Of a DNA stretch of 64,000 nucleotides, positions 9,101-12,100 are shown piece by piece; positions within the stretch are counted from its first letter, which is position 1, and each line of letters opens with the position of its first letter. The DNA comes from Hormiphora californensis. Taxonomy: Eukaryota > Animalia > Ctenophora. Under the pieces are notes generated by a model. That model made no database searches. It was given only the letters and a program-made list of their open reading frames with translations, and was not told the origin of the DNA. A program made the translations under genes and the position numbers. The stretch covers positions 620,001 through 684,000 of the forward strand of contig CM035353.1 in assembly GCA_020137815.1 (NCBI GenBank), in the 5' to 3' direction.

Positions 9101-12100
9101 ACGCAATATATACAGTAGGAAGAAAAAAATTATATATGCTATCCATTGAAACCTTTTCCTTTCAGCCGAGCTAAATTTTAAAATCTACAAGTTTTATTTA
9201 ATGGGTTAATTAATCAATTCAAATAATTTGGTGAGGCGTTTTTTGGAAAATTTGCACCGGGGCAAAGTGGCCCAAGCCAATAGCATTGCTCGATTTTATC
9301 ACGTGCCTGGTGTTGTTAGACGAAACGATCAAATTAGGGGCAAAGTGGCCCATGTTCTGCACCGGAACATGGGCCACTTTGCCCCTAATTTGACCGTCTG
9401 GACTACATTTTTGTGCATTCCAATGTCACGTGGTAGTGCAGGCGCCATTTCATTGGTCCTAGAGGTGGGCCACTTTGCCCCAGACCGGACCACTTTGCCC
9501 CGGAGAGTGGGCCATATTCGCCCCGATTTCACTTAATTGACAATTAAGACAACAAAAATGCCAATTTGTTCAAAATTTTTATACCACGTTTTAGAGAATT
9601 ATAAAGCCTAACTGGCAGTTTTTGCAATATTGAAATCGGCCAACCCAAACAGAAATGACAGCAGTTTTAAAGTGAAAATTCGGAACAGAACGAGCAGGTC
9701 TCCGCTGGAGAAAAAGTCACGTGACCACATGTAATAACTAGGGCCACTTTGCCCCAAACATGGGCCACTTTACCCGGTGGGCCAAACTACCCCAGCTTAC
9801 CCTAATTGGAAATCTCTATCAACACAATATGTATGATCAATGTAAGACTAGTATTTATGTAGCCAATGATATGAAACACAAATATGAATATAATCTGCCA
9901 CACAGGTTGGACAGTTCTGGTTCTAATATAATAAAACGACTTAAAGGCACCCAAGTTTCCCTCATTGGCTCCACGAGCAACACAACATGCGGTACTATAA
10001 CCTCAGTTAACACTTTGAACCCAAGATCTGCCGCAGATCAGACTTACACAATATCCTGCCCTGCTACTACCGAGCCCACTATAGCTGTGTTTCTGTACGA
10101 TGACACTATAGATAGTGACTATGATAACAATAATGGATGGCTGATAATGAATGTCGCGGAAGTGAATGTTCTTGGGTGGAAGTTTCAAACTTTTCAACAC
10201 TACTTTAAACAAATTAATTTGAGAAAGCCATGTCCAAGTAACAACCCCCGGACGCTAGTACGAGGAGCCGGTCACCACTATGTTTAAGAATGTGACTCTA
10301 CCTACCCCCGATTTCAACTCCTCGAGTACGAGTTCTATCTCACTCTACTCTTCCGCCTCCTCTACGGTATCATCCCCGATCAATGTATCAGTTGCAGTCC
10401 ACCAGACAGTTAGGGACTTAGAAGATATACAATCTGATAATGTTCTGGTAAACAAAGCGGATTTATTAAGGCTGCTAAACAACACCACTCAAAGCAGGCC
10501 ACTCCCGCGCCCCGTAAAGGTGTTCAGTAGTGATGATGGTGTTACAGCGGCTATACACTACCGAAATTTCGTTTCCTCCTCGACCCTGGACGAGCTGAAA
10601 ACAACAGTGCCCCAGCAGTTTGCGGAAAATCCCAGAACCCCCACCTCCTACAAATGGCTCTCCAGTACATCGGTAAGCTACGGGTGGGGAGAGTTCGAGC
10701 TACGGGCACATAGAACCCCTAAGCCAATTAGTGTTCTCATGGCTAGTGTCAACGAGATGTTCGGAACTGAGTTTAATGGGTGTCTCTTGGTATATTATAG
10801 GGACAGTAATGCGAAACTGGGGTTCCACTCCGATAGGGAGCGCATGAACGATCCGGCATCTCCTATCATCAATGTTTGCATAGGACAGTCTAGGAATCTG
10901 GTGTTCAGGACTGCGACAGACCCACATCAGTTAAAAGCCTGTTTCGAGTTGGGTGAAGGTGACTGTGTGTACTTCACACCGGAATGTCAGGATCTCTTCC
11001 AACATGCAGTGCAGGAGGCTACCAGGACCACACCGGCTGGCTGGAGAGCAGTGCTGTCATTTAGGAAGGTGGCACTATCTGGAAACGGTGCTACATCCAC
11101 CCCTGCCCAATCCAGAAAAACTGTCTGTAGGATGTTCCCCTCCCCTGCTGTACCACCCTCCCCAGTCCAGTCAGAAACTCAGCAACTCGTCCCAGTACCT
11201 GAGGAAACCCCTACTCCTCCTCCTCCTCCCCCTTCACACAATGAGGAGTCTCCTATGCCTGAGGAGACATACCAAATGACCGCCGGAACACCATTAATAT
11301 GCCCTTGGTCATGGTCATTGGTCCCCCGACTTATTTGGCTAGGGATCTATTGCACCTGGGACCCACCTTTTCACGTTTTTGGTTGAGTTTAACCGTGCTG
11401 GGCGACCTACTGGAGGATCGCTTGCGGTTACGCGTTGGCGATCGACTCCTGTCACCCGCATAAGCTGAAGGTATATCTTGAGTTGTACTGTTTTTCCTTC
11501 GGGGAGAAAGGCTTGAGTGGAAGGGCGAGCGACTGCCTGAAAGGTGATAGGAAAGGGTGACATATACATATTTTGACGAACAGCTGTTTGTACAACGCAC
11601 GTTATTTTACAAATACTATCTGAACTTGTATCCTGCTCAGATCCCGCAGGGACAGCATAGCATAGCTAATGCTGCCACTGAGGGATAATCAGAGCAGTTT
11701 ACATACACACTCAACCAAAACTAGATTCACCAACGGTGGAAAATAAATAACAGTTTATAAAAATTAAGGTCTCGAGTCTCGACACGTACCTGAGTGACGA
11801 GATCGAGTACTGCTCTCTTCAATCTTCTCTATCCGTGGTGTCCGGGACTTTTTCCGAGGGGGACTCAGATCCTCCTTGGTGATGTGATCACGGACGGTTG
11901 TCGAGGAAGGGCTTATATCGTCAACCTCGATACTTTTACGGTACTTTTTCCGTTTTGCCTTCTTTTGTTTGTGACTGAGAGAGAAATGGATTCGATCAAA
12001 GAAGTGTGATAACAAAAACTAAAAATGGGATACATATATTTATTGTTTTAGAGGGTGCCAAACATAAACATCATTTTTTTGTATTTACCTTGCTTCGGCA

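Follow-up and report, generated by a model that had tools for sequence, protein, structure and literature searches.

The window (the whole 64,000-nt stretch of Hormiphora californensis DNA that was analysed) contains a host CDK-type kinase gene, an intron of which (~8083–11272) holds a lectin-like gene and an inserted element fragment, both antisense to the kinase. The features of this locus, and a second spliced-leader (SL) copy elsewhere in the window, were as follows.

6135–12800, minus strand: host CDK-type kinase gene (Pkinase E = 1.9e-64; exons read from translated frames)
8814–10178, plus strand: two-exon secreted F5/8-type gene (six-frame reading)
10181–11266, plus strand: element fragment, the 5′ 1.1 kb comprising an SL copy, a uORF and the first 329 codons of ORF1
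10181–10223, plus strand: SL copy, likely the 5′ end of the element
10230–10241, plus strand: 3-codon uORF (MSK-stop), ATG at 10230
10280–10507, plus strand: ORF1 N-terminal region, Ser-rich, then likely helical
10508–11070, plus strand: AlkB (Fe/2OG dioxygenase) domain, ALKBH2/3-like, with H183, D185, H242, R256 and R262 intact
11071–11266, plus strand: Pro-rich linker up to the cut at 11266; this copy has no SGNH domain and no ORF2
11267–11386, minus strand: host splice donor and kinase exon (6-nt donor at 11272–11267), through which the plus-strand ORF merely reads
43645–44180, plus strand: second SL copy, ending at 43682 (34-nt match at 43649–43682), and the 3′ end of an L2-type ORF2

We take the kinase to be CDK12/13-like from a motif and its RS-rich N-terminus. 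Exon 1 of the gene at 8814–10178, presumably an F-type lectin, matched Pfam F5_F8_type_C at E = 3.5e-4, under the cut-off, and the SL copy comes straight after its last domain codons. The lectin-like frame (8814–10287) now runs through the SL, with 36 extra codons and a stop at 10285. An Rfam search of the region 9900–11600 gave no match, and neither an endonuclease (EN) nor a reverse transcriptase (RT) follows the AlkB ORF on the plus strand. A decayed EN-RT LINE at ~14050–16500 was considered as ORF2 of the element and rejected, as it lies on the opposite strand and host exons intervene.

ORF1 occupies an intronless open frame at 10259–11386 of the plus strand, with the first in-frame ATG at 10280; the final 39 codons of this frame come from the host splice donor and exon, read in antisense. 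Sequence after 11270 was also considered as the protease of an LTR element and rejected, being host exon and splice donor. Our first-pass annotation had described an ORF with a unique N-terminus and a Pro-rich linker, which stands except for its end, as the element stops at 11266. In codons 12–72, 17 of 19 displayed variants were synonymous, and the N-terminal region is therefore coding; a long N-terminal helix was predicted in the relative P0033 (12–39). The domain that follows matched Pfam 2OG-FeII_Oxy_2 (E = 4.9e-18; 66.5 bits, cut-off 31.2), with HSD at 10826–10834, HAV at 11003–11011 and RAVLSFR at 11045–11065. Its AlphaFold model (pLDDT 93.5) matched human ALKBH2 (E = 1e-13, TM 0.77), and ALKBH2/3 were the best among solved structures, at 18–20% structural identity to the human proteins, whereas ALKBH5 reached TM 0.65. 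The three metal ligands (H, D and the distal H) were present in 36 of 36 family rows and both arginines in 35. A compact AlkB domain with intact HxD, distal H and RxxxxxR, as first annotated, was thus borne out by Pfam, fold match and motif positions, and the HxD…H triad and RxxxxxR on a predicted double-stranded beta-helix place the protein among AlkB-family Fe/2OG dioxygenases.

Contigs from public DNA runs X1, X5, X6, X7, X11 and X12, out of 12 listed runs, were placed on the region. X5 and X6 represent one sample, and the window itself may derive from X1. X7, X11 and X12 gave SL pieces, low-complexity matches or one piece of depth 2.5 and were not used as evidence; in X12, which we guess to be an RNA run, the AlkB domain was uncovered, as were the flanking host exons, so that this run is uninformative. 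Contig depth, which is not copy number, was 135–146 for exact-match insert contigs of X1 compared to 38–54 for haplotype-level flanks, 1287–2867 compared to 128–435 in X5, and 2065–4336 compared to a flank of 569 in X6. The element stretch is multicopy in the DNA runs of two samples. Depth climbed from 5′ to 3′ in X5 and X6, as expected from 5′-truncated LINE copies, with no such gradient in X1 (146, then 135). The excess depth in all three runs and the empty alleles at this site agree with the interspersed, multicopy distribution, 5′-truncated copies included, that characterises a CR1-type LINE. Within the ORF lay 32 of the 40 displayed variants (80 in total), 26 of them at third positions, and 25 of the 32 were synonymous against an expected 23% (p = 1e-10, from few contigs), a pattern that supports purifying selection on the frame. 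The lectin intron also carries, at 9050–9800, a high-copy, MITE-like insertion with short inverted repeats, which is polymorphic, as X1 and X5 contigs skip 9043–9803.

At loose contig ends in X5 and X6, the frame remained open for up to 10 more codons past 11266, and an X1 contig ran 472 nt beyond this position; the frame continues in other copies, and thus the window copy is cut at its 3′ side. Depth fell to flank level at 11267. Flank contigs of X1, X5 and X6 passed leftward through 11267–11271 into other sequence, which is the empty allele; in X5, 201 nt of it matched nowhere in 8600–12200. The joint between 11266 and 11267 occurred in no displayed contig and stems from a deletion private to this copy or from chimeric assembly, by which the copy would have lost its 3′ 4–5 kb together with at least 201 nt of host intron. 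Neither a target-site duplication nor a 3′ tail was readable, as the copy lacks its 3′ end and its flanks do not match each other, and the window copy cannot move by itself. It is possible, though we hold this only tentatively, that the assembly joined an insertion haplotype to an empty one and that a full-length element occupies the locus. The absence of the joint from the displayed contigs, the unbroken X1 contig across 11266 and the flanks that cross 11267–11271 fit such a chimera; however, Logan contigs drop alleles, X1 is without the window's allele at 11314–11350, and the break leaves exactly the 6-nt splice donor intact, as selection on a real deletion would.

The SL copy at 10181–10223 corresponds to positions 2–44 of the 44-nt ctenophore SL given in the available text of PMC8527503 (43 of 44 nt, 43/43 identical) and marks the host as a ctenophore. 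The letters directly after it are AAAGCC, with no GT donor, and it is therefore not an SL RNA gene. A 34-nt SL pattern matched the window twice (exactly at 10190 and with 2 mismatches at 43649) and gave no match in 100 shuffles. In X1, a contig of depth 146 (10204–10723) runs from 20 nt before the end of the SL into ORF1 and shows 0 differences; an X5 contig begins at the same offset with full 5′ depth, and its first 22 letters, outside the compared stretch, would likewise match. The distance from the SL to the ATG of ORF1 is 56 nt. In the second SL-headed fragment, the SL is followed by ~120 nt (a 37-codon frame starting MSQKK) and then by the 3′ end of an ORF2 that we assign to L2 from its motifs; the fragment had no Pfam match. 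It is a different SL-headed LINE, either an internally deleted L2 or a template-switch chimera. The second SL had been read as leading into LINE sequence in support of the first: a LINE does follow, but its L2-type RT end belongs to a different family.

Relatives of ORF1 were collected with a HMMER search (1625 matches at E 0.001, the best 150 listed). A Pfam GDSL/SGNH match (E ≤ 0.01) was found in 27 of 47 scanned relatives (44 of 300–800 aa and three others), and an HMM derived from the family itself, and hence partly circular, marked 37 of 148. The domain order of the family is helix, AlkB, Pro-rich linker and SGNH, and the subclade to which the window copy belongs shares this whole order (hhalign E = 1e-35). 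The family profile matched ALKBH2 (8e-22), ALKBH3 (3e-20), the ZfL2-1 ORF1 esterase 4c1b (6e-16) and E. coli AlkB (3e-9). In the closest relatives, P0154 and P0156, SGNH follows the linker; over 36 rows, its Ser and Gly were conserved in 32/32 rows with letters and its His in 26/26, the domain being cut off in the window. AlkB had been proposed as cargo of the element; by this domain order it is instead predicted to be fused into the middle of an ORF1p with an SGNH esterase at its C-terminal end. Among the matches listed, the closest named protein was P0005 of Pleurobrachia bachei, and in AlkB+GDSL clusters of the Atlas the commonest recorded phylum was Ctenophora, with 1–3 records each. Word-index protein searches with the AlkB domain of the window found nothing at near or longer lengths, the family-profile search found only P0006 and 8 other AlkB proteins, and a search of viral contigs gave no relative and no exact SL.

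A tree was built from 68 of 163 domains, hand-picked from a quick tree, without named host ALKBH2/3 or named viral AlkBs and with P0002 and P0007 excluded as repeat-driven matches. In this unrooted tree, with bootstrap values not fully settled, the AlkB of the window fell in a 5-row subclade (99/96) within a LINE-type side of 29 rows (this AlkB and 28 others), which a 99/96 branch split from 37 stand-alone AlkBs and from two rows with an SGNH fusion of another type. Five loci had DNA context (L001–L005). In L001 (6346 nt) and L005 (6041 nt), Exo_endo_phos and RVT_1 domains come after ORF1 (E = 4e-28 and 3e-30), with a single in-frame stop between EN and RT in L005; we take these ORF2s to be of CR1 type from their motifs, and they are ~30% identical to the unrelated decayed LINE at 14.2–15.6 kb of the window. 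An ORF2 with EN and RT was thus present in 2/2 full-length relatives, both outside the subclade of the window. The contigs of L002 and L003 stop 470 and 54 nt past ORF1, L004 has 1 kb downstream of ORF1 with no ORF ≥ 120 aa, and L010 and L012 have SGNH followed by EN. Assemblies with the close relatives P0006, P0155 and P0156 measured 6.0–6.2 kb, like L001 and L005.

From these data, the stretch in the window is very probably a fragment of a LINE ORF1, and with good confidence we predict that the element is a young CR1-type LINE whose full copies would carry an SGNH esterase and an EN/RT ORF2. A 5′ ORF of an SL-headed LINE, as first annotated, accords with the multicopy distribution, the selection on the frame, the tree position and the two full-length relatives with EN and RT. 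The RT link runs via relatives ~30% identical to the window, and no linked RT was seen in its own 5-row subclade. This subclade might instead belong to another esterase-bearing retroelement (L2, RTEX or Penelope) or to an ORF1-only element mobilised in trans: according to the available text of PMC3905857, SGNH ORF1s occur in CR1, RTEX and Penelope and have been exchanged between retroelement clades, and the window itself also contains an SL-headed L2 fragment. We consider this unlikely, since the 99/96 branch and the whole domain order are shared with ORF1s ahead of a CR1-type ORF2 and the contigs of relatives are ~6 kb long. A processed retrocopy of a trans-spliced host ALKBH2/3 mRNA would also be intronless and SL-headed, would have ALKBH2/3 as its nearest solved relatives, and would suit genomes with hundreds of SL copies, as reported for ctenophores in the portion of PMC8527503 available. 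It is largely refuted and very improbable, given the low structural identity to human ALKBH2/3, the grouping of this AlkB with SGNH-fused, RT-linked ORF1s, and the evolution of diverged copies under selection. The first-pass statement that this is not a standard ALKBH1–8 gene agrees with a LINE ORF1 that is multicopy, polymorphic and grouped with LINE-type ORF1s in a tree without named host ALKBH.

The 5′ ends of the relatives were compared to that of the window. In L001, L002, L003 and L005, an A/T-rich tract closes with AG, and the ATG of a uORF comes 3–6 nt later. Their uORFs have 8, 5, 1 and 1 codons (MSKTALTM, MSKTE, M and M) compared to 3 in the window, and 3/5 uORFs, the window's included, start with MSK; a diverged X1 copy retains the same uORF (at a loose contig end before 10266). 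The uORF, initially taken as a sign of decay, is by its recurrence a family trait, and the real defect of the copy is the 3′ cut at 11266. For SL-likeness of the tracts, the score was reached by 113 (L001), 15 (L002), 2 (L003) and 1 (L005) of 1000 shuffles, i.e. the L001 tract was not significant; the tract was the best window of its own locus in 3/4 relatives, and all four are degenerate relative to the SL of the window. The contigs of L002, L003 and L005 start 39–72 nt ahead of the tract, as expected at an element boundary. Judged on sequence, the SL head is a family trait. An SL-like 12-mer was also present between ORF1 and ORF2 of L001, and was not seen in L005.

An SL head of this kind could be renewed by the host. 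A full copy in transcribed host DNA would be read through, the terminal AG of its SL copy would act as a trans-splice acceptor, giving the RNA a fresh capped SL, and ORF2p would reverse-transcribe this RNA up to and including the SL, so that the acceptor would be restored in the new copy. Trans-splicing affects at least 56% of transcripts in the ctenophore host, where nested genes are also frequent (PMC8527503, available text); with a gap of only 56 nt between the SL and ORF1, read-through and trans-splicing would thus yield a capped, precisely ended RNA. In the part of PMC12220107 consulted, ~30% of Hydra TE Iso-Seq reads bear an SL. We lean slightly towards renewal by host trans-splicing. 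The SL may instead be a fossil 5′ part, captured once and inherited as DNA, with transcription from an internal promoter and no trans-splicing in each cycle. Internal promoters are usual in CR1 elements, and the tracts of the relatives are degenerate, those of L001–L003, all from one metagenome, differing among themselves. However, the window SL is identical over its 43 nt and lies very near the ORF1 ATG, the tract, the AG and ATGT keep their position across families that are ~30% identical, and the hosts of the relatives may have other SL sequences; we regard the fossil as conceivable, with some doubt.

In the same proposed life cycle, ORF1p would be translated after the uORF and would likely multimerise via its N-terminal helix. 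Its AlkB cleft would hold the element RNA, from which the enzyme would remove RT-blocking base methylations of the m1A/m3C class before reverse transcription. Both m1A and m3C block RT. Whether such repair of the element's own RNA is the job of the enzyme we judge to be evenly poised. Esterase-type ORF1ps are described as having no known RNA-binding domain in the available text of PMC3905857, and the AlkB cleft could supply RNA binding to them. Alternatively, AlkB may erase m6A, repair methylated single-stranded DNA during insertion or only bind RNA. ALKBH2, the top match by structure, works on DNA, and the AlkB of an orchid Gypsy element removes m6A (PMC9289625, in excerpt); on the other hand, ALKBH5 ranks lower by fold and is not among the best 60 of 62 profile matches, and the near-invariant metal and 2OG ligands speak against a role in binding only. 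We place the chance that one of these other activities applies just short of even. As a tentative extension, we propose ctenophore-wide, promoter-less LINEs whose own capped 5′ end would be regenerated by SL trans-splicing and whose two-enzyme ORF1p would bind and repair its template through AlkB.

The closest known systems are the esterase-type (type IV) ORF1s of CR1/L2/RTEX LINEs such as zebrafish ZfL2-1, with which the relatives share a predicted N-terminal helix, a poorly conserved linker, the C-terminal SGNH and an APE-RT ORF2 (PMC3905857 and PMC4120745, available text). Unlike these, AlkB here lies between helix and esterase, and an SL copy forms the 5′ end. The terms 'alkb' and 'oxygenase' occur 0 times in the main texts of these two papers, and the main text of PMC5408684 makes no mention of AlkB. 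A Ty3/Gypsy element of Phalaenopsis likewise keeps an AlkB with intact cofactor ligands; in the available text of PMC9289625, it is an LTR element of one plant lineage with a separate, ALKBH5/ALKBH9B-like m6A-eraser ORF, whereas the AlkB described here is non-LTR, fused in ORF1p, ALKBH2/3-like and part of a deep ctenophore family. Plant RNA viruses carry a compact AlkB in the replication machinery of an RNA-phase genome, which acts on 1-meA and 3-meC, removing them preferentially from RNA (PMC2553587, in excerpt). Those domains sit in a viral polyprotein and, although a similarity had been pointed out, viral AlkB folds matched our model at 12–26% identity, like cellular AlkBs, and no special flexivirus or closterovirus relationship was found, the tree being without a named viral sequence.

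Non-LTR elements associated with SL sequence are also known: NeSL and CRE (SLACS/CZAR) insert site-specifically in SL genes with a restriction-like endonuclease (PMC3636483, available text), whereas the endonuclease of the relatives described here is of APE type, and the copy is a dispersed one whose SL lies beside a lectin exon with no SL-gene intron. An SL-targeting element of this type was therefore rejected, there being no SL-gene flank. In dinoflagellates, SLs have been copied to DNA by reverse transcription of trans-spliced RNA; these relict SLs are described for recycled host genes, and not as a fixed 5′ terminus in a family of autonomous LINEs (PMC5029490, in excerpt). In the open-access main texts searched, we found no AlkB-bearing LINE ORF1, only the orchid Gypsy LTR element for a retrotransposon-borne AlkB, and only trypanosomatid retroposons and NeSL/CRE for an SL with a LINE, the last two as far as the available texts go. 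The combination of an SL head and an AlkB-bearing ORF1 is new to this literature, and would be a variant of the esterase-ORF1 LINE. If correct, LINE biology would gain a new ORF1p architecture and, within the literature searched, the first nucleic-acid demethylase of a non-LTR element to be built into the particle-forming protein. One could then test if retrotransposition is limited by RNA base damage or by host methylation. The finding would also show how a LINE could do without its own promoter, and would partially answer where the dispersed SL copies of ctenophores (718 and 491 in the available text of PMC8527503) originate.

Several further observations were made among the relatives. P0034, P0108, L011 and L012 represent a second AlkB+SGNH ORF1 type, with an AlkB outside the main LINE-type clade, which may be an independent capture, and P0025, P0030, P0067 and P0077 form an ORF1 subfamily in which SGNH is preceded by two AlkB domains in tandem. 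G001, the source of L005–L012, is a bacterial MAG with 129 matches to RT, and the bacterial label of L005 likely reflects contamination by animal LINE contigs. Such ORFs get annotated as bacterial AlkB genes in LINE-contaminated MAGs; NCBI lists NRB82046.1, a LINE-type ORF1, as a bacterial AlkB.

Elsewhere in the window, 13181–22000 contains a ~4.28 kb tandem duplication with a decayed CR1-like EN-RT fragment (minus strand) and an ATPase gene, which we take to be NUBP/Mrp-like, and a similar duplication of 2.39 kb lies at 547–4132. A 624-nt inverted repeat pair, 99% complementary and 180 nt apart, occupies 37883–39310, and an intact-looking pogo/Tc5-type DDE transposase ORF of 646 aa is present at 61874–63814.
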